UHGV virus genome: UHGV-0214218
Strand: one strand, 5' to 3'
DNA: 43,834 nt
DNA from: a virus
Both the position numbers and the translations under genes were made by a program. Numbering within the stretch: the first letter of the stretch is position 1; each line of letters begins with the position of its first letter. Shown piece after piece: positions 1 through 43,834 of this stretch. The notes under the pieces were generated by a model. That model did not search any database. It was not told the origin of the DNA and saw only the letters and a list, made by a program, of their open reading frames with translations.

Positions 1-49
1 ATTTTTTTTGAGTTCATTATTGCTGCATACAGATAGCAGAGGTAAACAC

Positions 50-292
50 ATGAAAAGCATCGCAGAACAGATAAGAGAAATGGAACAGACGAAGCTGTCA
101 GAGCTGATTGATTATGTTGGAGGGCAATCACAACTGGCAAGGTTTCTTGGTGTGTCAAAACAGGCTGTTAATCAGTGGGTATCAAGAGGAAGAATTAGCG
201 CTACAGCAGCAATTGATGCCGAGAAACTTACTGGCGGAGTTTTCAGAAAGGAAGATTTAAGGCCGGCTGTCACAAAATGGATTGTTAAATAA
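50..292 (+). CDS. Cro/YdaS-like helix-turn-helix DNA-binding protein
   Basis: Uses the frame of track ORF 8-292. The first ATG is at 50 and is preceded by GAGG. It carries the HTH signature QSQLARFLGVSKQAVNQWVS and is followed by a hairpin terminator. Confidence 0.6.
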   Translation: MKSIAEQIREMEQTKLSELIDYVGGQSQLARFLGVSKQAVNQWVSRGRISATAAIDAEKLTGGVFRKEDLRPAVTKWIVK

Positions 293-3256: not shown

Positions 3257-3347
3257 AACAACCCCCTCTCCAATAATCTAAACTCAATATACCAACATTC
3301 CTATAATCAGGCAACACACTCAATACACACAAAACAAATGAACAGCG

Positions 3348-3376
3348 TTGACAATAAAAAACAAAAGGTGTATCAA
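3348..3376 (+). promoter_or_regulatory. sigma70-like promoter TTGACA-17-TATCAA reading into the iteron region
   Basis: Perfect -35 TTGACA at 3348-3353 with a 17-bp spacer. The -10 is weak. Confidence 0.3.
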
Positions 3377-3421
3377 TACAGGTGCGTTGTTTAAGTGGTT
3401 GTTTTGAAAGAAAAAGAATCC

Positions 3422-3631
3422 GATTTGCCAGCTATTTGCCAGCTATTTGCCATGTATAAGTTACTGATTTTTAACTATTTTACCTAATTCCCTATTTGAC
3501 ACGGCTCTAAAAGACATTTGATGACCGGGAATAAAAATTAGAAGCCACCCGTGGCAAATAGGGCAAATAGAAAATAGAAAAAAACAAAAGCAAAAACAGA
3601 AACTTAGAAACAAACAAGTCTGGCAAATAAG
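3422..3631. repeat. iteron-like cluster: three tandem GCTATTTGCCA units (period 11, 3422-3452) plus a degenerate copy at 3491, facing three TGGCAAATAG units in the opposite orientation (3551-3631) and four AAAATAGA repeats
   Basis: Repeats read directly from the sequence. The region is non-coding in all frames and AT-rich, and lies next to the primase operon. Confidence 0.55.
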
Positions 3632-3673
3632 AAGAAAATAGAGAAAATAGAAAACATAAAATAAATCACAAAT

Positions 3674-3702
3674 AACCAGCTTAACTGCTGGTTTTCGTTT
3701 TT
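3674..3702 (+). terminator. rho-independent terminator (AACCAGC-TTAACT-GCTGGTT followed by TTCGTTTTT)
   Basis: 7-bp stem with a 6-nt loop and a T-rich tail, inside the non-coding origin-like region. Confidence 0.5.
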
Positions 3703-3858
3703 CTGCAGCGTAAGGTATTAATATCTATAATAAATATAAAGAAGATCTTAATATACTTTATAGAGGTAATAAACAAAGGTTACTATTAGTAATACATGTA
3801 ACTATATATGTGAGCTAGCGTTAACTAACATTTAGTCGTGTTTTTTCTTTCTCTGTGT

Positions 3859-3887
3859 GTTGACGTAGAATCATCATTGATGTAGAT
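3859..3887 (+). promoter_or_regulatory. early promoter TTGACG-17-TAGATT (contains the 12-mer TTGACGTAGAAT)
   Basis: -35 at 3859-3864 and -10 at 3882-3887. A GAGGGTGAAGAG RBS and an ATG at 3919 follow. Confidence 0.5.
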
Positions 3888-3918
3888 TGAACCCATCGAA
3901 ACAAACGAGGGTGAAGAG

Positions 3919-4065
3919 ATGAGAATCAAAGACCGTGAAGAATTTGAAGATGCACAGGCTATGGCACGAATTGCAGTTGAGCGCAAAAACAACAGCATTC
4001 CTGCCGAAGCATTCTGGAATGCAGCAATGCAGGCTTTAATCTCGGCGTATGGGTTAAGCAAATGA
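3919..4065 (+). CDS. small early protein (48 aa)
   Basis: ATG preceded by GAGGGTGAAGAG. Below the ORF-track cutoff. Its stop overlaps the next ATG. Confidence 0.45.
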   Translation: MRIKDREEFEDAQAMARIAVERKNNSIPAEAFWNAAMQALISAYGLSK

Positions 4066-5565: not shown

Positions 5566-5591
5566 AACCCGCCTTGTGCGGGTTCTTTTTT
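5566..5591 (+). terminator. rho-independent terminator (AACCCGC-CTTGT-GCGGGTT followed by CTTTTTT)
   Basis: 7-bp GC stem plus a T-run, placed between the early cluster and terS. Confidence 0.75.
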
Positions 5592-5598
5592 GCCTTTG

Positions 5599-5607
5599 TG
5601 ATAGAAT
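5599..5607 (+). promoter_or_regulatory. extended -10 element TGATAGAAT upstream of terS
   Basis: TGnTAGAAT lies 26 nt upstream of the GAGGTG RBS. It belongs to the late-promoter family GTGATAnAAT. Confidence 0.4.
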
Positions 5608-5632: not shown

Positions 5633-6088
5633 ATGTCAGATAAACCAATCGGGCGACCGACAGAATACAAACCTGAGTACGACGAGCAGGCGTACAACTA
5701 TTGCCTGCTTGGTGCTACCGATAAACAGCTTGCTACTTTCTTTGATGTGAGCGAACAAACAATAAACGCATGGAAACACAAACATCCGTCGTTTCTTGAG
5801 TCCTTAAGGCGAGGAAAGGAAATTGCAGACGCAAGGGTTGCTCAAGCATTATTCAGTAGGGCTACCGGGTATGAGCACCCAGAAGACGATATCAAGGCGG
5901 TTAATGGTGAAATAGTAATCACACCAACAATAAAAAGGTACCCTCCAGACCCCACATCAATGATTTTCTGGTTAAAGAACAGGCAACCAAAACTGTGGAG
6001 AGATAAGCCTGAATCTGAAGGTGCAGATGGCGATGGGGCAATCCATAAGGTGCAGATAGAGGTGATTAGTGCAGATAAGAGTAAGTAA
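5633..6088 (+). CDS. terS: terminase small subunit
   Basis: 151 aa. N-terminal HTH-like region PIGRPTEYKPEY...LLGATDKQLATFFDVSEQTINAWK. Sits immediately upstream of terL and has a GAGGTG RBS. Confidence 0.7.
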   Translation: MSDKPIGRPTEYKPEYDEQAYNYCLLGATDKQLATFFDVSEQTINAWKHKHPSFLESLRRGKEIADARVAQALFSRATGYEHPEDDIKAVNGEIVITPTIKRYPPDPTSMIFWLKNRQPKLWRDKPESEGADGDGAIHKVQIEVISADKSK

Positions 6089-6133: not shown

Positions 6134-6646
6134 ATGCATGAAGATTATTTTAGTTACGCCAATGGTAAGCTGTATTGGGTTTTACGCAATGAGGAATCAT
6201 TCAAAACCAAAAGAGGATACTCAGTACACAAAAATAAATATGCTGGTAAGGAGGCTGGCAACATTGGAAGGAATGGTTACAGGTATGTGCGCGTTTATGG
6301 GAAGCTGCTACTTGCGCACCGCATTATATGGGAGATGTTTAACGGACCAATCCCGGAAGGTATGGAGGTCGATCATATAGATACAAACCCATCAAATAAC
6401 GACATATCAAACCTGAGATTGGCAACGTCATCTAACAATAAATGGAATATGAATATACCATCACATAATACTTCCGGATTTAAGGGTGTGAGCCTTTTCA
6501 AGGCTACCGGGAAGTACGAGGCTTACATAAAATTTAACGGCAGGAAGATTCACCTTGGTTTTTTTGATACGCCGGAACTTGCACATGAGGCGTATAAGTT
6601 AGCGGCTGATAAGATGTTCATGGAGTTTAGCAATCATGGAAATTAA
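6134..6646 (+). CDS. HNH homing endonuclease with AP2 DNA-binding domain, inserted between terS and terL
   Basis: HNH_3-like core LAHRIIWEMFNGPIPEGMEVDHIDTNPSNNDISNLRLAT plus an AP2-like GFKGVS...YEAYIKFNGRKIHLGFFDTPELAHEAY. Overlaps the terL start by 11 nt. Confidence 0.85.
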   Translation: MHEDYFSYANGKLYWVLRNEESFKTKRGYSVHKNKYAGKEAGNIGRNGYRYVRVYGKLLLAHRIIWEMFNGPIPEGMEVDHIDTNPSNNDISNLRLATSSNNKWNMNIPSHNTSGFKGVSLFKATGKYEAYIKFNGRKIHLGFFDTPELAHEAYKLAADKMFMEFSNHGN

Positions 6647-7943
6647 GATGACACTAACCGAGCCTCAGGCAAGGTTCATGAACCTCAATTGTAAATTCCC
6701 TGCTTTTATCGCTGGCTTTGGTACTGGGAAGTCAGAGACTATGTGTAACTCTGCATTGCTTGATAGTCTCGAAGGTGGTTCTGACTCACTTATAGCCATG
6801 TATCAGCCGACTTATGATCTTGTGCGCCTTATTCTTGCTCCCCGCATGGAAGAGAAGTTGATCGACTGGGGTATTCGATATAAATATAACAAGGCAGAGA
6901 ACATAATCTACACGTCATCAGGGCAGATGGGGGATTTTGTTCTCAGGACTCTGGATAATCCGGCGCGAATAGTTGGTTATGAGTCGTTCCGTGCAAAGAT
7001 TGACGAAATTGACACACTTAAGCAAGAACACGCATCTGAGGCGTGGATAAAAATAATCGCCCGTAACCGTCAGCGCCCGAGAACATATACTGACACGTCA
7101 GGCAAGCCTATGAATACCGTTGGCATATTCTCAACCCCAGAGGGGTTCCGGTTTGTTTATGACAGATGGGTAAAGAACAAAAAGGATGGGTACGAAATGG
7201 TGCAGGCAAGCACTATGAGCAACCCTTTCCTGCCTGATGACTACGTTCAGTCACTGCGCGATAGCTATCCACCGCAACTCATTGAAGCCTATCTGCAGGG
7301 TGAGTTTGTAAACCTTACGTCTGGCACTGTTTATCCTCAATTCGACAGGAATCTTAATCACAGCGACGAGGAATACAAGACTGGTGAACCAGCCCATGTC
7401 GGTATGGACTTCAACGTGGGCAAGATGTCTGCGATTATTCATGTTGAAAGGGATGGCGACCCGATCGCAGTTGGCGAGATACTTGGTGCTTACGATACTC
7501 CAGAAATGATTCGGTTAATCAAGCAGCGTTTATGGCGTGAGACATCAAATGGTGAGTTTGAGAAGCTGTGTGAAATTTACGTTTATCCTGATGCGTCAGG
7601 TGGCAGCCGCAAGACCGTGAACGCTGGCACGTCAGATATAGCTTTGTTGAGAGATGCTGGCTTTCATGTTATGGCTGACAGTAAGAACCCACCAGTCAGG
7701 GACCGCATCAACTCTGTTAACGCGATGTTCTGCAATGCTGAAGGAGAGCGCAGATACAAGGTAAACACAAAGCTGTGTCCAGTCTACACTGAGGCGAGAG
7801 AGCAGCAGATTTACAACAAGCAGGGCGAGCCAGACAAAACTCACGATAAGGACCACCCGAACGATGCGGCTGATTATTACATTTATAATAAGTTCCCGCT
7901 CGTACGACCAATGGCAGCAATGCTAATCCGGCGCAGGCGATAA
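6636..7943 (+). CDS. terL: terminase large subunit
   Basis: 435 aa. Walker A FIAGFGTGKSE, then a C-terminal nuclease-like region with conserved acidic residues. Confidence 0.9.
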   Translation: MEIKMTLTEPQARFMNLNCKFPAFIAGFGTGKSETMCNSALLDSLEGGSDSLIAMYQPTYDLVRLILAPRMEEKLIDWGIRYKYNKAENIIYTSSGQMGDFVLRTLDNPARIVGYESFRAKIDEIDTLKQEHASEAWIKIIARNRQRPRTYTDTSGKPMNTVGIFSTPEGFRFVYDRWVKNKKDGYEMVQASTMSNPFLPDDYVQSLRDSYPPQLIEAYLQGEFVNLTSGTVYPQFDRNLNHSDEEYKTGEPAHVGMDFNVGKMSAIIHVERDGDPIAVGEILGAYDTPEMIRLIKQRLWRETSNGEFEKLCEIYVYPDASGGSRKTVNAGTSDIALLRDAGFHVMADSKNPPVRDRINSVNAMFCNAEGERRYKVNTKLCPVYTEAREQQIYNKQGEPDKTHDKDHPNDAADYYIYNKFPLVRPMAAMLIRRRR

Positions 7944-7976
7944 AAATAAAGCCCTCATTCGAGGGCTTGTTTCTCT
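7943..7976. terminator. bidirectional rho-independent terminator (AAGCCCTC-ATTC-GAGGGCTT) flanked by A-run and T-run
   Basis: 8-bp stem. The stop codons of terL and of the converging DpdA-like gene lie in or next to the hairpin. Confidence 0.75.
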
Positions 7977-8740
7977 ATCCACTCATCTATCGTCGGTGGC
8001 TTAACTGACTCTACAGCTCCTTTAAGCACCGCTGCCCTGCCGCGCAATATAGTTTGCTTCAATTCTCTGTCATCAAGACCATTGCAATAATCCGCCTCTC
8101 TTATTGCGCGCGTCAGTTCTGGATACTTGACCTCGAATTTCGGTATGTTGCACGCCAGATTGGTGCTGTCTGCCGTGTGTAATGGGTAATTACCCAGCAC
8201 GCGACCATCAAGCATGCGCAGACCGTGAATCTTCGTTTTTAGTCCACGTTTAATATAAATCTCCGTGAGTGCCTCCTTCATTCTGGCATGCCATAATTTA
8301 GTGCGAATTGTTGCGTATTGCCCTGATGAGCCAAAGCAGACTTTAGGCCAGTTCTGGCACAGTTCAACCAGCCTGTCGATGCTTTCGTGAAGGTGCCATG
8401 TTGGTACGGCTTTACCCCTGAACATAGAAGGAAGTTCACGGATGAGTCTATCGTTATCTTCCTCGCTACCATCAATAACATCAGGGATGATAAAGAAATC
8501 AAGTTTTTCATTGTGGTAATGTTGCATCAGCCACTGATAAAAAGGAGTCCAGTCGCGAACAGGGTTTCCGCTTCTCCATGCGCTGAAGGCACCATTATCA
8601 AAAGCAACACTTCCAGATAATTCAAGAGCTTTCTTTGTTTGTTGAGGCCATGCGTGAGAAACGAAAGCGCCACTTCCCCGTGTGGCTATTTGCATAACTC
8701 CATCACCCCATATCGGCAGACCGTGATAATGATGTATCAT
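7955..8740 (-). CDS. DpdA-like protein, tRNA-guanine-transglycosylase (TGT) superfamily; putative DNA 7-deazaguanine transglycosylase
   Basis: FDNGAFSAW aligns to the TGT substrate motif DSGGFQ. HTADSTNL aligns to the catalytic FD(C/S) region. The CxCxxC zinc subdomain is absent. The ATG at 8738-8740 overlaps the stop of the adjacent YhhQ-like transporter gene as ATGA, with a GAGGA RBS. Confidence 0.5.
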   Translation of the reverse strand: MIHHYHGLPIWGDGVMQIATRGSGAFVSHAWPQQTKKALELSGSVAFDNGAFSAWRSGNPVRDWTPFYQWLMQHYHNEKLDFFIIPDVIDGSEEDNDRLIRELPSMFRGKAVPTWHLHESIDRLVELCQNWPKVCFGSSGQYATIRTKLWHARMKEALTEIYIKRGLKTKIHGLRMLDGRVLGNYPLHTADSTNLACNIPKFEVKYPELTRAIREADYCNGLDDRELKQTILRGRAAVLKGAVESVKPPTIDEWIEKQALE

Positions 8741-9201
8741 TTTGCTTTCCTCAAAATTAATGACCATGCAGCGCCGCCGAAAACTTTAGCCACAAATTGA
8801 CCAGCGACAACTAGCGGCATAAAGTAACCAAAGGCAATAAGCGGAAAAATTACCGAATCAACAGCTGACGCTGCTATATTGCTTGCGTTGGACTTTATCA
8901 GCCAATGCTTTTTGATTAGTAACTGGTATACAGACGCATCAGCTAGAGCTGCGATAGCGAACGAAGCAACACTTGCGATGGCGATCATATCGGTGGCTGG
9001 GTTAATCAAATAACTCAACACACCAGCGATACATATAAGAACTATTATTTTCCTGACACCGACCCTCTCATGCAGCTTATCCCTTACAACAAAATCAAGG
9101 CCAATAAACAGAAACGCGTTTACTGGAGTGATTGCCGGTCCAAAGAAATGCACCGAGAAATTTGCTGCGCATATTGCTGCTATATAAATTACTGAAAGCA
9201 T
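8737..9201 (-). CDS. YhhQ/DUF165-family membrane protein (queuosine-precursor preQ0/preQ1 transporter family), short form
   Basis: The 154-aa polytopic protein aligns to E. coli YhhQ: LFIGLDFVVRDKLHERVGVRKIIVLICIAGVLSYLIN versus IFLATDLTVRIFGAPLARRIIFAVMIPALLISYVIS, and NIAASAVDSVIF versus LFGNVSDTLAFF. CAGGAG RBS. Confidence 0.6.
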   Translation of the reverse strand: MLSVIYIAAICAANFSVHFFGPAITPVNAFLFIGLDFVVRDKLHERVGVRKIIVLICIAGVLSYLINPATDMIAIASVASFAIAALADASVYQLLIKKHWLIKSNASNIAASAVDSVIFPLIAFGYFMPLVVAGQFVAKVFGGAAWSLILRKAK

Positions 9202-9228
9202 GTTAACTCCTGTTTGTTATTCATTGCC

Positions 9229-9257
9229 AATCTACATCACTAGCATATTTACGTCAA
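9229..9257 (-). promoter_or_regulatory. leftward promoter TTGACG-17-TAGATT for the YhhQ-like/DpdA-like operon
   Basis: On the - strand, TTGACG is the complement of 9252-9257 and TAGATT is the complement of 9229-9234, with a 17-bp spacer. Same architecture as the promoter at 3859. Confidence 0.5.
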
Positions 9258-9295
9258 CATTTATTATTGTTGTTGATAAATCAGCATCAACGCAC

Positions 9296-9324
9296 TTGAC
9301 CAATCTACACCGGGCGCATAGTAT
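9296..9324 (+). promoter_or_regulatory. rightward promoter TTGACC-17-TAGTAT for the early cluster starting at 9355
   Basis: -35 at 9296-9301 and -10 at 9319-9324. Three ATCTACA motif copies lie in the same 150-bp divergent region. Confidence 0.55.
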
Positions 9325-9354
9325 ATCTACATCAGGCTTACCGGAGATATCACT

Positions 9355-9561
9355 ATGCGCAGCTATGCAGGATTTACACAGGAGGAAAAAGAGCAGGTTT
9401 ACTCACTGGCACGAGCTGGGGTGCCTGATGATGTGATTTGCCGTCGGTATGATATCGACGAGGATTTTCTACTGCGCGTTATTGATGATGTTTTCGTTAA
9501 CCTGCAAGAGAAGCGCGGGTACAAGGGTATCTGCTGCAAGAATGATTTTTTGAGAGGGTGA
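9355..9561 (+). CDS. hypothetical early protein (68 aa)
   Basis: Six-frame ORF with GGAG 10 nt upstream. Confidence 0.5.
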   Translation: MRSYAGFTQEEKEQVYSLARAGVPDDVICRRYDIDEDFLLRVIDDVFVNLQEKRGYKGICCKNDFLRG

Positions 9562-10334: not shown

Positions 10335-10343
10335 TGATATAAT
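10335..10343 (+). promoter_or_regulatory. extended -10 TGATATAAT upstream of the portal gene
   Basis: CGTGATATAATCC, a member of the GTGATAnAAT late-promoter family. Confidence 0.45.
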
Positions 10344-14107: not shown

Positions 14108-14165
14108 TTGATGTAGATACTATGCACCACCACTCAATCTACGTCAATACCTGTTGTGATAGAAT
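14108..14165. promoter_or_regulatory. divergent promoter region: inverted pair TTGATGTAGATA ... AATCTACGTCAA, leftward TTGACG-19-TAGTAT, rightward extended -10 TGATAGAAT
   Basis: The 12-mers sit at 14108-14119 and 14136-14147 in inverted orientation. The extended -10 is at 14157-14165, ahead of the AGGAGG RBS of the lysis cassette. Confidence 0.45.
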
Positions 14166-16445: not shown

Positions 16446-16747
16446 TATTTAATCTCTCCATTCAGTTCATTAACAATTAACGTCGCATAGCCAGCAATAT
16501 CTTTCCAGCTATCATCATAGGTCGGGTCGCCATTCAGAATTCGCCCAATCTTGTGCTGAATCATGTCGAGTGCCTCGCGTTGGCTTGGCGTCAGGTTGTG
16601 CCAGCCATCCACTTCGCGCATCACATCTTTCAGCTCCTGCATGATTTCAGCACCGTCTTTGAATTTACCGTATCGACTGCCGCGCTCTGTGATGAGTTGC
16701 TCTGTTGCATTAGTATGGCGCTTATCGCCCGTGATTTGTGAACTCAT
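16445..16747 (-). CDS. hypothetical protein (100 aa)
   Basis: Six-frame ORF. Confidence 0.5.
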   Translation of the reverse strand: MSSQITGDKRHTNATEQLITERGSRYGKFKDGAEIMQELKDVMREVDGWHNLTPSQREALDMIQHKIGRILNGDPTYDDSWKDIAGYATLIVNELNGEIK

Positions 16748-17234
16748 TGTGATGCATTCTCCTAAATTCTTTTATTTTTGCTTCCGCTTCTCTTATGTCA
16801 GAAAAGTAACCAACTGTAACTCTTTTGCCATTTACTCCAACTCTTGCATGCCACTTGTTGTGCGATGAACTCCAGTTAACCCCCTTGACACCGCTAGTGT
16901 TGTTTTTGTTCATTGCTTTGTTGTGGCTATTCTCAAATTTACTGGCCGCCCTTAAATTGCACGCCCTGTTGTCATTGCGAATGCCATTGATGTGATCAAT
17001 CATTTCACTTGCTGATGAGCCATGAATGCATATCCATGCTAATCTATGAGCAAGAAAAGCCCTGCCACAAAGAATTATTTGCACATATCCATCTGGCTTT
17101 AAGTGGCCCGCCACGCTCCCTTTTTCTGCAATCCTATTCCTTGTCTTTAGCCATTTAAATTCCCCAGTTAGTGGATTGTAGTCAAGGTAACTCAATATAA
17201 ACTCCCTACTCGGCTCCTCCCTCCTATGTCTCAT
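16722..17234 (-). CDS. HNH homing endonuclease with AP2 domain (paralogue of the terS/terL-inserted one)
   Basis: FLAHRLAWICIHG...IDHINGIRNDNRACNLRAAS plus GVKGVNWSSSHNKWHARVGVNGKRVTVGYF aligns with the 6134-6646 protein. Confidence 0.8.
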   Translation of the reverse strand: MRHRREEPSREFILSYLDYNPLTGEFKWLKTRNRIAEKGSVAGHLKPDGYVQIILCGRAFLAHRLAWICIHGSSASEMIDHINGIRNDNRACNLRAASKFENSHNKAMNKNNTSGVKGVNWSSSHNKWHARVGVNGKRVTVGYFSDIREAEAKIKEFRRMHHNEFTNHGR

Positions 17235-17437
17235 TTCTCCCCCTCTTTCATCGTCACCCGATTATTTTCATCAACATTAAAATTCTCACGAATCAAATCG
17301 TACATATCATCCTTATACATATCAGCCAGCGCCACATAGCAACGGGCAAAGTAGCGAACATCACGGAGTGTCAGCGGCTGCCGCTTCTCCACGATGCTGG
17401 TGATAATGTCCATCGGCTCGCGTCGTGGTCTTGGCAT
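17231..17437 (-). CDS. hypothetical protein (68 aa), first gene of a leftward early operon
   Basis: Six-frame ORF with GAGAAGGAG upstream. Confidence 0.5.
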   Translation of the reverse strand: MPRPRREPMDIITSIVEKRQPLTLRDVRYFARCYVALADMYKDDMYDLIRENFNVDENNRVTMKEGEK

Positions 17438-17536
17438 ATTTACTACTCCTTCTCGAAAAACATCTTGACGTTTCTACATCACTTAGTCAATACTTATTGA
17501 CGTAGATTGTATCACAACGAAAGAGGTGATGTGGAA

Positions 17537-17989: not shown

Positions 17990-18231
17990 GCGCGCCGCAT
18001 ATGCCGATGATGAATGATGAATCGCTATTAACATGCCCGTTCTGCGGTGGTCACCCTGAAATAAATGAGACCAGATATGGATATTACATCTCATGCGAGG
18101 ATTGCAATGCAGAAACTGATGCATGGCTTCATCAAGCATCAGCAGTGAAATCATGGAATACCAGAAACGGACATCTATACAATGCAGAAGACTTCAATCA
18201 GGCAGCAGAGGAACGCGAACATGGACTATAA
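17986..18231 (+). CDS. lar: Lar-family restriction alleviation protein
   Basis: CPFCGG...C..C...A...WN.R zinc-ribbon pattern (LLTCPFCGGHPEI...SCEDCNAETDAWLHQASAVKSWNTRNG). GGGGAG RBS. Confidence 0.65.
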   Translation: MSAPHMPMMNDESLLTCPFCGGHPEINETRYGYYISCEDCNAETDAWLHQASAVKSWNTRNGHLYNAEDFNQAAEEREHGL

Positions 18232-18709
18232 ATCGCAAATCATGCGCGTGATTGTCAATCATCCAGGGGCAACGCGTGCATACATTGAGAAGCATTGCGG
18301 AGGAAAGCATTCAAGCACCACAACGCATCGTTTGCATGAGATGCTTGCGCTTGGATTCATTCGCCGCGAGAAGTCCGTGATTCGTGGCGGGAAGTGGCAG
18401 TATAAATATTTCATATCTGATGATGCGGCAGGTATTGATGATGCAATTAAGTGTCACCTGATTGATAACGCTGGCGCAGAGGTAAAAGAAATCAGCATAG
18501 CAACTAGCATTGATTATCGCATCGTGAAAAGCCGAATACGCATTATGTTTCATAACGGTGATGTAACGCGAAGCTATGACCACCACAAGAAGCTATGGCG
18601 TTACTCATGGAAGGATAAGGAAGTAAATGTGAGCAACCTGTTTAATTCACTTCTTCGCAACGCAAGAGGTCATCATGGGAAAAGCGAAACGCAAGAAGCA
18701 GGAGTATGA
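18221..18709 (+). CDS. hypothetical protein (162 aa)
   Basis: Internal ATG of track ORF 18182-18709, overlapping the Lar-like stop. Confidence 0.5.
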   Translation: MDYKSQIMRVIVNHPGATRAYIEKHCGGKHSSTTTHRLHEMLALGFIRREKSVIRGGKWQYKYFISDDAAGIDDAIKCHLIDNAGAEVKEISIATSIDYRIVKSRIRIMFHNGDVTRSYDHHKKLWRYSWKDKEVNVSNLFNSLLRNARGHHGKSETQEAGV

Positions 18710-19760: not shown

Positions 19761-19883
19761 ATGAACATAATCCCTATCACTTACTTTCTCACGCTCTACG
19801 CACTCACCAATTCACCATTGTTTGCACTGGCTACCGCCTCATGGTGCTACATCTCCCTGTGTTATAATTCGACCACAAACTAA
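19761..19883 (+). CDS. possible small hydrophobic protein (40 aa)
   Basis: Strong AGGAGG RBS 6 nt upstream of the ATG. It overlaps the promoter of the head operon. Confidence 0.3.
   Translation: MNIIPITYFLTLYALTNSPLFALATASWCYISLCYNSTTN
19860..19868 (+). promoter_or_regulatory. extended -10 TGTTATAAT upstream of the head protease/scaffold gene
   Basis: TGnTATAAT preceded by GCTACATCTCC. The RBS GTGGAGAG and the ATG at 19900 lie downstream. Confidence 0.45.
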
Positions 19884-23661: not shown

Positions 23662-23834
23662 CACTTCACCTTAATCATGTGCTGTTTTGCAACTTTCAGG
23701 CATTCTTCAAAAATGCCGCCCTTCTTTGCACTCTGATTGCGCTTGTAATACTGGATTGCCGCATCAATTGCCATCTGGTCAATGTCAGGTAGCTTGGCGC
23801 GCAGCTGTTTTTCGATGAATTGTTCGGGACTCAT
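23661..23834 (-). CDS. small protein (57 aa)
   Basis: ATGA overlap with the methyltransferase stop. Its stop overlaps the next ATG. Confidence 0.35.
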   Translation of the reverse strand: MSPEQFIEKQLRAKLPDIDQMAIDAAIQYYKRNQSAKKGGIFEECLKVAKQHMIKVK

Positions 23835-24550
23835 CCTAAAATCCTATTTTTTGCTATTTCAAAATACACATCATCTTTTTCAATGCCGATGAACCTACGC
23901 CCTGTGTTTATGCACGCCACGCCAGTTGTGCCGCTGCCCATAGTGAAATCGAGAACCGTTTCACCCTCATTGGTGTAGGTCTTGATTAGGTACTCCATGA
24001 GGGTGACTGGTTTTTGTGTCGGGCGAACTGTTTTCCCTTCGCTTGGAAACCTTTGAATTGTCTTTGGGTAGTTTGTGTGAGTTTGAAGGTACTCTGTTTT
24101 CCTCACCCCGCCGCCATTGTTATCTGTAACCTTTGAGCCTTGCTTTGTTATTTTGTTGCACTCGATAAGACCTTGAGGATAGTAAGCTGGAGAACTCGCA
24201 GAAAAAACGATTACATCTTCATGTATTTTTAAAGGCTGTTTTTTAGCGAGCATCTGGTTTGCGAATCTGGTTTTCTCCCAAACCCAACAATACTTAAACA
24301 TCTTCATGTTGCTTGCAATGAGTGTTGTAGTAAACGGCTGGCTTGCAGTCATCACAATAGCGCCGTTCGGCTTTATGATGCGCTTCAATTGTTCCCACAT
24401 TGGCTCAAGAGGGATGATGGAGTCCCATTTACAGGCGGTTGTACCATAAGGTGGGTCGGTAAGCACCAGATCAACGCTACCACCTGGAATAGACTTCATA
24501 ACTTCCAGACAATCACCATGAATTAATTGCACACCTTTATTTATAATCAT
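23831..24550 (-). CDS. DNA methyltransferase, beta-class amino-MTase (motif IV DPPY precedes motif I FTMGSGTT); N6-adenine (Dam-like) or N4-cytosine
   Basis: DLVLTDPPYG comes before DFTMGSGTTGVA, the circular permutation typical of the beta class. Confidence 0.85.
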   Translation of the reverse strand: MIINKGVQLIHGDCLEVMKSIPGGSVDLVLTDPPYGTTACKWDSIIPLEPMWEQLKRIIKPNGAIVMTASQPFTTTLIASNMKMFKYCWVWEKTRFANQMLAKKQPLKIHEDVIVFSASSPAYYPQGLIECNKITKQGSKVTDNNGGGVRKTEYLQTHTNYPKTIQRFPSEGKTVRPTQKPVTLMEYLIKTYTNEGETVLDFTMGSGTTGVACINTGRRFIGIEKDDVYFEIAKNRILG

Positions 24551-25359
24551 TACATCTTCTCCAGAATTGCCATAACCTCGTGAATGTCAGCAACAGGAAT
24601 CTGGATAAATTCCTCATCCTCTGCCACCACATGACCAGCGGGAAGAATCACATGGTCTGCCGGCTTCAATAACTCAATCAAACGGTCTACTGGCTTAATC
24701 TTTTTCGACTTCAGCACCTTTGCCGTGACCTTGTCCTTGCCCTGCGCCTTCGCTTCTTCGACTGCCTCGTCGATAACTTTTACCGCATCATCACCATGCT
24801 CACGCGTTACTGCTACGGCATTTGCATAGCTGATTTGCCCGGCGCTGATTCGCGCTTTTACTTCCGCTGGAACGTCACCCAACGACAGATGCATCTGCAC
24901 GTCAGACACTGAACGCCCTACCTTCTTGGCGATTTCTTCATTCGTCCAGCCAAAGCCTTTCAGTCGCGTGTAAGCCTTTGCGCGCTCAAACGGGTCAAGT
25001 TGCTTGCCCTGACTTGATGACACCATGAATGCGATTTTATCCGCCTCGTCGCCAGTGAAATCTTTGCACTCAATGCGAACGATTGGTGCTCCGCGCTCAA
25101 TGGCACGCAATGCGCCGAGATAGCGGTGCTGACCATCAAGAATGCGGATTCCTTTCTCGTCAGGAATAACTGTTAATGCTGGTAATGGCTGACCTGATTC
25201 CCAGCACTGCGCGAAATATTCCACATGCTGCTCATCTGCTTCACGGATGTTATATCCCGGCTCCAGATAGATTTGTTCCACTGGTACGATATAGGTTTTG
25301 TTAACAGCGATGCCGTTGCGCGTTTCTTTGTCTGAATAGATTTTACTGAGTGTTTTCAT
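24550..25359 (-). CDS. ParB-like nuclease domain protein
   Basis: ParB/Srx-fold N-terminal motif ILDGQHRYLGAL. Start overlaps the methyltransferase stop by ATGA. Confidence 0.7.
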   Translation of the reverse strand: MKTLSKIYSDKETRNGIAVNKTYIVPVEQIYLEPGYNIREADEQHVEYFAQCWESGQPLPALTVIPDEKGIRILDGQHRYLGALRAIERGAPIVRIECKDFTGDEADKIAFMVSSSQGKQLDPFERAKAYTRLKGFGWTNEEIAKKVGRSVSDVQMHLSLGDVPAEVKARISAGQISYANAVAVTREHGDDAVKVIDEAVEEAKAQGKDKVTAKVLKSKKIKPVDRLIELLKPADHVILPAGHVVAEDEEFIQIPVADIHEVMAILEKM

Positions 25360-25554: not shown

Positions 25555-25577
25555 TTATTGTTGTTTCTACGTCACTA

Positions 25578-25606
25578 ACTATAAACTCACCGTCAATCTA
25601 CGTCAA
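25578..25606 (-). promoter_or_regulatory. leftward promoter TTGACG-17-TATAGT (contains the 12-mer TTGACGTAGATT)
   Basis: -35 is the complement of 25601-25606 and -10 the complement of 25578-25583. A second CGTCAA/TCTACGTCAC copy lies 30 bp away. Confidence 0.55.
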
Positions 25607-25653
25607 CAGGAATATGCTAAAATCATGCTAATCAAACAACAGGAGATTTAAAC

Positions 25654-25773
25654 ATGGGCTCCACCAATTCGCCCTCTCGTTCACGCGCTGCTGGCAACAC
25701 AAAAACTGGTAGTAAAACTGGCACAGTGAAGCCAAACGGTTCCACTCGTTCACCATCGCGTGGTAAGAAATAA
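25654..25773 (+). CDS. small basic Ser/Thr/Gly-rich peptide (39 aa)
   Basis: AGGAG RBS. Stop overlaps the next ATG. Preceded by an extended -10 TGCTAAAAT. Confidence 0.3.
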   Translation: MGSTNSPSRSRAAGNTKTGSKTGTVKPNGSTRSPSRGKK

Positions 25774-28013: not shown

Positions 28014-28016
28014 ATA

Positions 28017-28040
28017 AAGCCGCACTTGGCGGCCTTATTA
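28017..28040 (+). terminator. weak terminator-like hairpin (GCCGC-ACTTG-GCGGC followed by CTTATTA)
   Basis: 5-bp stem and a poor T-run. May act as an attenuator ahead of the long leader. Confidence 0.3.
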
Positions 28041-28068
28041 CTGGTTTAAGCATTGCCAGCGTGCTTTC

Positions 28069-28132
28069 TTAATATCCAGCCCCGTAACCCATACATACCC
28101 CTACATATGATTGCGATAATGCTGGATATTAA
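28069..28132. repeat. perfect 12-bp inverted repeat TTAATATCCAGC / GCTGGATATTAA separated by 40 nt inside a 430-bp non-coding leader
   Basis: Arms at 28069-28080 and 28121-28132. Partial extension of the stem on both sides. Confidence 0.5.
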
Positions 28133-28426
28133 GTGCTGTGGCGTCTCGCGATTAACTGAGACCGGCATAACAATGGATGCAAACCTATCCAAATAATCAA
28201 GATGGCATTACCACAACGGCAAGAGCACTCCCACTTTAACCCGCACGACCCATTAATACGCCGTCGGCTGCTCTGAAATGCTCTTACCTGTTGTGTGCCG
28301 GTTACGCGTCCGGCGTCTCTCGACCGCTAATTGCAATTGAAGAATTGTCTGTAATTAAATGAAATCAGGGAACCAATCTCTGTTAAATCCAAATCTACAC
28401 CACAAAATAATCACTGTCAACACCTG

Positions 28427-28435
28427 TGATATAAT
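28427..28435 (+). promoter_or_regulatory. extended -10 TGATATAAT with AATCTACACCAC at about -40, promoter of the major tail gene
   Basis: CTGTGATATAATCACC with the AATCTACACCAC motif at 28392-28403. GGAG RBS and the ATG at 28472 follow. Confidence 0.5.
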
Positions 28436-28471
28436 CACCACGTTAGCAGCTAACACAATTCGGAGATCGAA

Positions 28472-29568: not shown

Positions 29569-29862
29569 TTACATACCTTGCTTTTCACATAAAGCAACAG
29601 CCACATCACGCAATTGCTCTTTGGTCATATCCTTGCGTGCATAAACCATTTCTACGATAGCAATGCCGATTATTTCTGCTGATTCGTTGTTTTTTGCGGA
29701 ACCTTTAACTACCACCTCGGCAAGATTCTTGCTGATACCATTATCGCGAACATCAGCAGTGTTCATGGCGATTTCTCCAATGTTCTTGCACACCTCTGAT
29801 GTTGCTACAGCAGAGAAAGAAGAAACCAATAGTGCAGATGCAATCAAAATTTTAATTTTCAT
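29569..29862 (-). CDS. secreted (Sec signal, signal peptidase I site AVA-TSE) small protein, moron
   Basis: MKIKILIASALLVSSFSAVA signal peptide without a lipobox. AT-rich relative to neighbours. Opposite strand inside the tail module. Confidence 0.55.
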   Translation of the reverse strand: MKIKILIASALLVSSFSAVATSEVCKNIGEIAMNTADVRDNGISKNLAEVVVKGSAKNNESAEIIGIAIVEMVYARKDMTKEQLRDVAVALCEKQGM

Positions 29863-29937
29863 AACTCACCTCATTTATATCTCGTTTCGATGACTTGAAT
29901 CTACATCACCACCTAGCAGGTGTCAACACCACTGAGA

Positions 29938-29946
29938 TGATATAAT
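29938..29946 (+). promoter_or_regulatory. extended -10 TGATATAAT with AATCTACATCAC at about -40, promoter of the tail chaperone/tape-measure operon
   Basis: GAGATGATATAATCAAC with the AATCTACATCAC motif at 29898-29909. Confidence 0.5.
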
Positions 29947-33163: not shown

Positions 33164-36961
<3,798 letters not shown>

Positions 36962-36964
<3 letters not shown>

Positions 36965-36970
36965 TACAAT
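36962..36970 (+). promoter_or_regulatory. extended -10 TGATACAAT upstream of the tail fibre gene
   Basis: CGTGATACAAT overlaps the stop of the J-like gene. AAAGGAG RBS and the ATG at 37004 follow. Confidence 0.4.
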
Positions 36971-37003
36971 ATACATCAAATTCACAAAGGAGCATTTATT
37001 ATA

Positions 37004-38876: not shown

Positions 38877-39021
38877 CAGTATTCCATCAGCTTTACCTTC
38901 AACACAAACACCTCCTGCTGCCGGGAGACATCGTGGTATTTCCCTGGTCTATGACGTCAACTACGACTACTGGTGTGTTGTTGGCATGTCTACATCTGAC
39001 GAGTTGAGTGCTTAATCACGA

Positions 39022-43749: not shown

Positions 43750-43834
43750 AGTGTCCTCTCGATTTAACTCAGCATATCGCTGGTGTGACTTAAAGATACG
43801 TCAACGTGACGGTAAACGCAATACCTTGACGAAA

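Follow-up and report, generated by a model that had tools for sequence, protein, structure and literature searches.

An asymmetric 12-mer marks the predicted host-type promoters of a family of small enterobacterial siphophages and probably also serves as a docking site for a phage regulator

The repressor site of mycobacteriophage L5 and the cluster A phages is asymmetric, about 13 bp long, and present in more than 20 copies per genome, at promoters and in intergenic DNA (PMC9283540). Coliphage T1 and Citrobacter phage Stevie carry an asymmetric repeat of 22 bp in 16-20 copies, mostly intergenic and oriented with transcription, whose role is unknown (PMC4319613). KorB of plasmid RK2, which acts at the operator OB, and the proteins VirB and DndB are element-encoded helix-turn-helix (HTH) proteins of the ParB family that use a short site present at many promoters for global repression (PMC11790492, PMC12704722). 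The L5 sites and the T1/Stevie repeats appear closest in kind, and KorB-OB with other ParB-family regulators may be closest in mechanism, to the element described here, the 12-mer TTGAYGTAGATT of virus genome UHGV-0214218 (43,834 bp; this whole stretch is called the window below). In the window phage and its relatives, this 12-mer marks nearly all predicted classical host-type promoters and supplies either their -35 or their -10 box. We classify it as a putative phage-specific promoter/operator motif, whose unusual feature is that one module supplies either promoter hexamer, and we propose with moderate confidence that it is a family-specific cis-regulatory module, at the same time part of -35-dependent sigma70 promoters and operator of a conserved phage protein that would occlude these presumably early promoters.

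As in the L5-type repressor sites, the 12-mer is an asymmetric multi-copy site of 12-14 bp, with 13-14 copies in the window, all of them intergenic. The complement of the L5 site, CTTGACAGCCACC, contains a -35 hexamer, like the 12-mer. However, L5 is temperate and its sites keep the prophage silent, and many of them lie inside operons, where they stop elongation in an orientation-dependent manner, whereas copies of the 12-mer are found almost only at promoters. No strong stoperator-like copy was found within the operons of the window, the sole candidate (36968-36979) being a weak and reversed variant. In addition, the 12-mer also supplies the -10 box, and L5 has a known repressor where the window phage has only candidates. 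Phages T1 and Stevie are, like the window phage, lytic small siphophages with an asymmetric multi-copy intergenic repeat, but the sequence of theirs, VWATAGCAYKWWTTGYTAAAAV, is unrelated to the 12-mer and nearer to the second, extended -10 promoter class of the window, and a dual -35/-10 use is not described for it. The likeness to RK2 lies in a window protein matching KorB and HTH_ParB and in copies of the 12-mer at several promoters, including that of this same protein; in contrast, OB is a 13-bp palindrome, and neither ParA/IncC nor KorA partners were found in our Pfam domain scans for regulators, which covered about 55 proteins of the window phage, or in the annotations of its relatives. 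Phage T4 defines its middle promoters as a temporal class by a phage-specific MotA box in the -35/-30 region, combined with a host-type -10. A phage motif in the -35 region of a subset of promoters with host-type -10 is likewise found here, but the MotA box replaces the -35 and needs AsiA, whereas the -35 consensus of the window promoters is intact, the 12-mer is also found at -10, at +1, and reversed, and no MotA or AsiA homologue was detected in the window. Finally, region 4 of sigma is said to bind at lambda PR', a result attributed to Nickels et al. 2002. There, a -35-like hexamer almost adjoins a -10-like one (sequence in PMC4604602), but at a single site downstream of one promoter, compared with 14 sites, mostly at promoter hexamers, in the window phage.

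The window corresponds to an essentially complete genome of a small Skatevirus/Buchananvirus-type siphophage. Its identity is ~90%, across 55-80% of the sequence, with E. coli phage Sa179lw, Shigella phage Sf11, and the two Salmonella phages Skate and Akira. The two ends of the window (1-49 and 43750-43834) join in the gap between the divergent Sak4 and cro genes, precisely as they do in Sa179lw, and are thus contiguous, so the genome is circularly permuted. A map of 79 genes, built from homology to Sa179lw plus open reading frames (ORFs), was the basis for the split between coding and intergenic DNA, the latter amounting to 7.9% of the genome. For comparison, five genomes were used: the window, Sa179lw, Klebsiella phage BUCT541, Citrobacter phage K1M, and "Vibrio" phage pYD38-A (Roufvirus), the last three aligning with only 12-19% of the window (77-83% nucleotide identity).

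The initial annotation had described a recurrent motif family restricted to intergenic DNA and often placed in divergent promoter regions, and both claims were borne out by genome-wide enumeration. The word ATCTACRYCA matches nine times in the window against 0.24 expected, the 12-mer TTGACGTAGAWT with at most one mismatch matches five times against 0.34 expected, and all the 11 copies of the core TGAYGTAGA (11/11) are intergenic (binomial p = 8e-13). When a matrix of 15 columns was trained exclusively on three distant genomes, it gave 13 window matches at or above the threshold of 12 bits, against 1.35 in shuffled sequences, and again all of them (13/13) are intergenic (p = 5e-15). In an unbiased test of 6-8-mers, GATGTAGA, TTGACGTA, and GTAGATT appeared among the top intergenic-enriched words, the remaining top words being terminator stems. 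A scan of the window for a generic promoter consensus was not enriched overall (29 matches against 31.7 expected), so consensus scans alone are uninformative here. The sites of the host factors CRP, FNR, IHF, MetJ, NarL, and LexA do not appear to fit the motif.

The logo (175 distinct contexts) is t-TG(A/g)(C/T)GTAGA(T)(T)-(g/c)-a-a, its flanks carrying no information, and the corresponding consensus, t-TG(A/g)(C/T)GTAGA(T/a)(T/a), is asymmetric and not palindromic, its two halves being a -35-like TTGACG fused to a -10-like TAGATT. In most gaps with the motif, one promoter is covered by two copies, at spacings of 17, 22, or 31 bp when direct, 28 bp when convergent, and 25-26 bp when divergent. 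Given the asymmetry of the motif and the variable spacing and orientation of the pairs, the palindromic pairs reported at first are not its defining form. Most of the sites listed were recovered too, except that the 9202-9354 gap contains four copies and not three, all on the minus strand (9229-9240, 9246-9257, 9302-9313, and 9324-9335), and that the site at 38990-39000 (CAGATGTAGACA), located between convergent genes, scored below the threshold and is probably a chance match.

With respect to the promoters themselves, the annotated position of the TTGACG half, 17-19 bp upstream of a -10, was found at 3860, 9257, 14147, 25606, and 17465. The description of the motif as a -35 element was nevertheless incomplete, since the TAGATT half serves as -10 as often, a use that had been overlooked at 3877, 9229, 28392, and 29898, all with TTGACG or TTGACA 17 bp upstream. 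Following TTGACG at 3860, 9257, 14147, and 25606, the predicted -10 boxes are TAGATT, TAGATT, TAGTAT, and TATAGT, respectively. In two cases (3860/3877 and 9257/9240), the whole predicted promoter is made of two copies 17 bp apart, a tandem design present in all five genomes. In the first of these, the copy at 3860-3871 (+) (TTGACGTAGAAT, 20.0 bits) provides the -35 of a rightward promoter for the small-gene operon from 3919, and the copy at 3877-3888 (+) (TTGATGTAGATT, 22.4 bits), 17 bp start-to-start from the former and 30 nt from the ATG at 3919, provides the TAGATT. In the second, a degenerate copy at 9246-9257 (-) (TTGACGTAAATA) is the -35 of a leftward promoter for 9201-7955 (a Vut_1-like gene and an unknown gene), with its TAGATT supplied 17 bp after 9257 by the copy at 9229-9240 (-) (GTGATGTAGATT, 15.4 bits), located 27 nt from the start codon at 9201. 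The perfect copy at 25595-25606 (-) (TTGACGTAGATT) contributes the -35 of a predicted TTGACG-17-TATAGT promoter (-10 at 25583-25578) for the operon of the ParB/KorB-like protein, and that at 14136-14147 (-) (TTGACGTAGATT, 23.2 bits) the -35 of a leftward promoter for 14095-12809, whose -10 would be either TAGTAT at 14122-14117, with a spacer of 19 bp, or CATAGT, with one of 17 bp.

The complementary use is found at 28392-28403 (-) (GTGGTGTAGATT, 12.3 bits) and 29898-29909 (-) (GTGATGTAGATT, 20.1 bits, 35 nt from the start codon at 29862), where TAGATT is the -10 and a perfect TTGACA lies 17 bp upstream (28420-28415 and 29926-29921, respectively), as is also the case at the orthologous sites of the four relatives (4/4). 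Over the five genomes, a perfect TTGACA 17-18 bp upstream of TAGATT was detected in eight cases, two in the window and six in the relatives. All seven intergenic matches to TTGAC-N17-19-TAnnnT in the window carry at least one copy of the motif (7/7), and the gene-nearest copies are placed 22-40 nt upstream of a Shine-Dalgarno (SD) sequence and start codon, in the same orientation as the gene.

Other copies occupy different positions on promoters. The one at 25564-25575 (-) (GTGACGTAGAAA, 17.0 bits) covers about -4 to +8 of the 25606 promoter, 27 nt from the start codon, and is kept together with the leader in 52 distinct relatives. The copy at 14108-14119 (+) (TTGATGTAGATA, 18.5 bits), convergent with 14136-14147, lies on the other strand over the -10/+1 of the leftward promoter and lacks the T at the position equivalent to -7. 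Copies of this kind, ending in TAGAAA or TAGATA, are conserved over the start site (25564-25575) or, reversed, over -10/+1 (14108-14119), and none of the 17 in the five genomes has a good -35 box, whereas the copies that do have one all end in TAGATT (15/15). Reversed copies are found on the predicted TTGACC-17-TAGTAT promoter at 9296-9324 (+), upstream of the 68-amino-acid HTH-like gene 9355-9561: a weaker one at 9302-9313 (-) (CCGGTGTAGATT, 8.4 bits, kept in relatives), which abuts the -35 within the spacer, and another at 9324-9335 (-) (CTGATGTAGATA, 13.0 bits), which covers about -7 to +5. Being 22 bp apart, they do not form a leftward -35/-10 pair, and both positions are conserved, K1M included. 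The candidate rightward promoter TTGACG-18-AATACT at 17465-17494 (+) shares this layout, with a reversed copy at 17471-17482 (-) (GTGATGTAGAAA, 12.2 bits, 33 nt from the start codon at 17437 and with no usable upstream -35) abutting its -35, and a perfect forward copy at 17497-17508 (+) (TTGACGTAGATT, 21.5 bits, 22 nt from the SD/ATG of 17537) over its predicted start. The latter shows neither a -35 box 16-18 bp upstream nor a -10 box downstream and, as those at 6332 and 36314 of BUCT541, is a perfect copy without partner hexamer just upstream of a gene. Two further copies are doubtful: a variant with a G->T change in the core at 36968-36979 (-) (TTGATGTATATT, 13.9 bits), overlapping on the opposite strand TGATACAAT, the extended -10 promoter for the tail fibre, and a 10/12 match at 43793-43804 (-) (TTGACGTATCTT, 7.7 bits) between the divergent Sak4 and cro genes, which may be no more than a -35 box.

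Core copies were found at orthologous promoters of Sa179lw (11), BUCT541 (10), K1M (13), and pYD38-A (10), and by this sequence comparison the motif characterises the phage family as a whole. Among TTGACR-17-TATAGT promoters (37 distinct sequences), the bases of TAGATT, the spacer hexamer adjoining the -35, reach 1.8-2.0 bits, against mostly 0.3-1.1 bits for the last nine spacer positions (one at 1.5). Among TTGACA-17-TAGATT promoters (24 distinct sequences), the hexamer that ends the spacer, gTGRYG, reaches 1.6-2.0 bits at five positions and 0.8 at the R, against 0.5-1.1 bits for upstream positions, although these values overstate independence because the sequences are phylogenetically related. 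The same pattern of conservation as a unit appears in the alignment of the 25606 promoter (52 sequences). Thus, the half that sigma70 would not use is as conserved as the half that it would, and, together with the reversed copies, those without the T at -7, and those without a partner, this suggests that the 12-mer is also a protein-binding site, probably the docking site of a phage regulator. The paired copies with variable spacing and orientation fit with independent occupancy of the -35 and of the -10/+1 region by such a protein. In this sense, the operator function proposed in the initial annotation remains plausible, on account of the conserved unused half and of the reversed copies across other promoters, but not the Cro-like regulator to which it had been assigned.

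In a more distant clade (L194-196, to which IMGVR_UViG_3300013022_000001 and 3300013104_000007 belong, with a ParB-like protein 68-72% identical), the GTAGAT core is kept with an altered 5' half (TGGAG or TGTCG) and appears as a close inverted pair, GTAGAT-N4-5-ATCTAC, over a promoter. At positions 5940-5990, 9090-9120, and 11440-11490 of L194, and also in L195 and L196, the motif is replaced by TGGAGTAGATTA or TGTCGTAGATAA; no cultured relative of this clade was found. A scan of IMG/VR with a 14-mer showed that about half of the loci recovered were single-copy and outside the family, probably as chance matches, and that multiple copies were present only in relatives. Two IMG/VR sequences with no evident relation to the family, L009 (20,973 bp, at 6950-6995) and L011 (76,291 bp, at 6460-6500), contain an inverted pair of the 12-mer, AAATCTACATCAAatattggTTGACGTAGATTGA, in L009 about 220 bp from a serine-recombinase gene; this pair could be due to chance (roughly p 0.05 over the scan) or be an unrelated operator.

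The simplest alternative, which we regard as unlikely, is that the motif is promoter consensus only, that is, that strong sigma70 promoters resemble each other through common descent, module exchange, or unrecognised contacts with RNA polymerase, with no dedicated regulator. Both halves match sigma70 hexamers with exact -35/-10 spacing, the gene-nearest copies are at promoter distance from start codons, and T1 and Stevie also have long conserved intergenic repeats containing promoter-like sequence, all of which speak for it. However, positions -29 to -24 and -17 to -13 are near-invariant while the other spacer bases drift, and sigma70 has no known base-specific reading there. This explanation also leaves without a role the conserved copies lacking the T at -7 and the reversed copies inside other promoters, as well as the perfect copies without partner hexamer (17497 in the window; 6332 and 36314 in BUCT541), and it does not account for a core that is kept in a different, inverted arrangement in L194-196.

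If the 12-mer is an operator, its binder should be conserved along with it, because the motif is identical across the family. Two proteins could be considered, with the ParB/KorB-like protein perhaps first and gp9355 second. The former, encoded at 24550-25359 (-), consists of a ParB N-terminal domain plus an HTH, with domain matches to HTH_ParB (2.5e-11) and KorB (7e-6) and further matches to Spo0J (1vz0, 7e-13, residues 41-202) and KorB (8qa8, 3e-3). It is present in all the genomes examined and is 80-87% identical in the distant ones, far above most non-structural proteins, with an invariant HTH segment and about 192 records at >=60% identity. The sequence DGQHRY takes the place of the GERRxR cytidine triphosphate-binding box, and two motif copies are found at the promoter of its own operon in all five genomes (five/five). 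The second candidate, gp9355 (9355-9561, +), is a predicted HTH-like protein of 68 amino acids that could be a binder or a factor directed to RNA polymerase. Its 206 records all belong to this phage family, and its structural model (predicted local distance difference test, pLDDT, of 82) shows three helices in a bundle. Sequence searches of Pfam and the PDB found no match for it, and a profile-based locus search returned close relatives only. As above, its own promoter bears two copies in five/five genomes, which are the two reversed ones in the window.

A second class of predicted promoters bears on the proposed mechanism. The extended -10 sequence TGNTANAAT, mostly TGATAKAAT, matches the genome 11 times, of which 10 are intergenic, including the one at 36962 that straddles a gene end. 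Nine of these matches are rightward (5599-5607, 10335-10343, 14157-14165, 19860-19868, 25615-25623, 28427-28435, 29938-29946, 34383-34391, and 36962-36970) and are located directly upstream of terS, portal, endolysin, the capsid module, the head-tail module, the major tail gene, the tail assembly/tape measure genes, a tail protein, and the tail fibre, so that every block of structural or lysis genes is headed by one; another match is leftward (17506-17514). BUCT541 and K1M keep this class as well. In rightward operons, a motif promoter with small genes comes first and an extended -10 promoter with structural genes second, and in the one case checked a terminator (5566-5584) separates the two parts. 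The promoters at 14157, 25615, 28427, and 29938 are back to back with motif-bearing leftward promoters, and as a result the -35 regions of both overlap. The interval 14108-14165 comprises the convergent pair 14108-14119 (+)/14136-14147 (-) and the extended -10 promoter of the lysis cassette (TGATAGAAT, 14157-14165, +), whose -35 region is also occupied by the 14136-14147 copy. Judging from their gene content, the motif promoters would be early and the extended -10 promoters late.

According to the mechanism that we propose, the host RNA polymerase with sigma70 (Esigma70) would initiate transcription at the motif promoters, and the conserved phage protein would then occupy the 12-mers, blocking the -35, the -10, or the start site, and would autoregulate its own operon. 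Such occlusion would shut off the motif promoters and relieve the back-to-back late promoters of competition. Here we infer the binding by a protein, repression as its sign, the timing, and the identity of the binder, whereas the statistics of the motif, its conservation, also as a unit, the geometry of the hexamers, and the exclusion of Cro by its distribution among the phages come directly from the sequences. A more specific version, in which one half of a single asymmetric module is read by sigma70 region 4, the other half by region 2, and the whole by the competing ParB/KorB-like or 68-amino-acid protein, is offered tentatively; on it, a ParB-family global repressor would run the early-to-late switch of a virulent siphophage from about 14 monomeric, non-palindromic sites placed back to back with late promoters that do not depend on a -35.

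Several observations weigh against the operator proposal. A ParB/KorB-type site is expected to be a palindrome of 13-16 bp, as the sites of chromosomal ParB and of KorB are, which the 12-mer is not, and no GTAGA-type motif was found near the homologues of the ParB-like protein at 43-47% identity (L199-L203), whose HTH helix is almost identical. With respect to gp9355, its top structural matches are all HTH DNA-binding domains (NarL/GerE, CENP-B, and ArdK) but weak (E >= 0.27), and the protein is net acidic. The orientation of the copies is uninformative, since nearly all of them lie in divergent gaps; the early and late labels come from gene content; the aligned promoters are of common descent, as noted for the bit values; and a literature search on the 12-mer, and on how Skatevirus, Buchananvirus, and Roufvirus are transcribed, found no publication. 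Finally, the conservation of the motif as a unit is equally compatible with a positive factor that reads it.

Such a positive element, in which TGAYGTAGAWW would be read by a phage activator or by a sigma-appropriating or sigma-like factor and each copy would be self-sufficient, seems to us quite unlikely. In its favour, perfect copies without a -35 are found 17-30 nt before start codons in five/five genomes, and gp9355, the candidate factor, is confined to the family, acidic, and predicted to adopt a three-helix fold like that of sigma region 4 or LuxR, its K1M homologue being annotated as "sigma-70 region 4". On the other hand, the conserved 17-bp tandem and the perfect TTGACA partners show that ordinary reading by sigma70 matters, and the scan of about 55 proteins revealed no sigma-like, MotA/AsiA-like, or Q-like domain. 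Furthermore, pairs of copies separated by 10-31 bp would give redundant promoters, and transcription from the reversed copies at 9302 and 9324 would run against a stronger promoter.

That the motif acts as a sigma70 trap or promoter-proximal pause element of the lambda PR' type, with adjacent hexamers that would retain sigma70 on the complex early in elongation, either for pausing or for antiterminator loading, is highly improbable. The juxtaposition of TTGACG and TAGATT does resemble the TTGACT-c-AACGAT of PR' (PMC4604602), and two copies (25564-25575 and 17497-17508) cover about -4 to +8 of predicted promoters. Judged from the predicted starts, these two place a -10-like element on the non-template strand within +1 to +15, with an adjoining -35-like element, which most copies do not. 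However, most copies are at the -35 or -10 and not past the start, several downstream ones are reversed, with the -10-like half on the template strand, binding of sigma region 2 would be poor at copies without the T at -7, and no Q-like gene came out of the Pfam scan. As for the regulator named in the initial annotation, the HTH protein encoded at 50-292 (+), it is scarcely credible as the binder on phyletic grounds, for although it is a genuine Cro/YdaS-type HTH and there is one convergent pair (14108-14147), it has no homologue in BUCT541, K1M, or pYD38-A, all with the identical motif, it is present in only 29 phage records, compared with about 200 for the family (206 for gp9355 and about 192 for the ParB-like protein), the motif shows no dyad, and the cro-Sak4 gap holds no strong copy, only the 10/12 match of 7.7 bits.

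The Cro-like gene is located within a swappable primase-polymerase module. In the cro leader, a short inverted repeat reads CTGC..GCAG in the window and CTAC..GTAG in Sa179lw, a change on both sides that keeps the pairing. Other proteins were also considered as binders. The phrog_1687 "MarR-like" protein (18221-18709, +), with only marginal MarR matches in Pfam and no PDB relative, is disfavoured, as it is reduced to about 54 amino acids in Akira, which keeps four motif copies (12 kb examined). The genes at 6134-6646 (+) and 16722-17234 (-), with HNH_3 and AP2 domains and apparently encoding homing endonucleases, were rejected because both are absent from Sa179lw, which keeps the motif; their insertion points are between terS and terL and within a leftward operon, respectively. 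Directly downstream of the ParB-like gene, an N6/N4 DNA methyltransferase (PF01555, 5.6e-32) is encoded at 23831-24550 (-), and a link between it and the motif was discarded as the gene is absent from Sa179lw, BUCT541, K1M, and pYD38-A, BUCT541 having a C-specific methylase at this position.

In addition to the elements described above, other features of the genome were noted. The strong leftward promoter at 28420-28392 (TAGATT at 28397-28392) points into a gene-free stretch of 458 bp (28014-28471), and its orthologue in BUCT541 precedes a tRNA-Ser/Arg/Met cluster; in the gene-free gaps of the window no tRNA and no match to an Rfam family was found, and the target could be a remnant, a small ORF, or a non-coding RNA. 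Downstream of the 25615 promoter, an unannotated ORF of 39 codons with a good SD (25654-25773, +), for which no Pfam match was found, has a stop that overlaps the next ATG. The two-gene module driven by the 9257/9240 tandem promoter (7955-9201, -), absent from the four relatives compared, encodes a Vut_1/YhhQ-like membrane protein (8737-9201) and a protein of 270 amino acids (7955-8767), and could be an accessory for queuosine-precursor or DNA modification. Finally, a gene-free region of 662 bp beside the primase-polymerase operon (3257-3918) contains iteron-like repeats, CTATTTGCCA(G), with three in tandem at 3421-3455 (11-bp period) and inverted copies at 3553-3570 and 3622-3630, followed by an AT-rich stretch at about 3700-3800, and is a likely replication origin.

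In conclusion, the 12-mer provides a testable regulatory map for a little-studied group of enterobacterial siphophages of about 200 genomes (Salmonella, E. coli, Shigella, and Klebsiella phages), many of which have been proposed for therapy or biocontrol. In this map, two predicted promoter classes are arranged back to back, one -35-dependent and marked by the 12-mer, and the other of extended -10 type, for structural and lysis genes. The motif may be of use for annotating transcription units and for designing promoter or reporter constructs in these phages. Should the ParB-like protein be the binder, the phage ParB-HTH proteins, a widespread family of unknown function, would gain a part in transcription, and the range of KorB-type global control would come to include a virulent phage and a site without symmetry.

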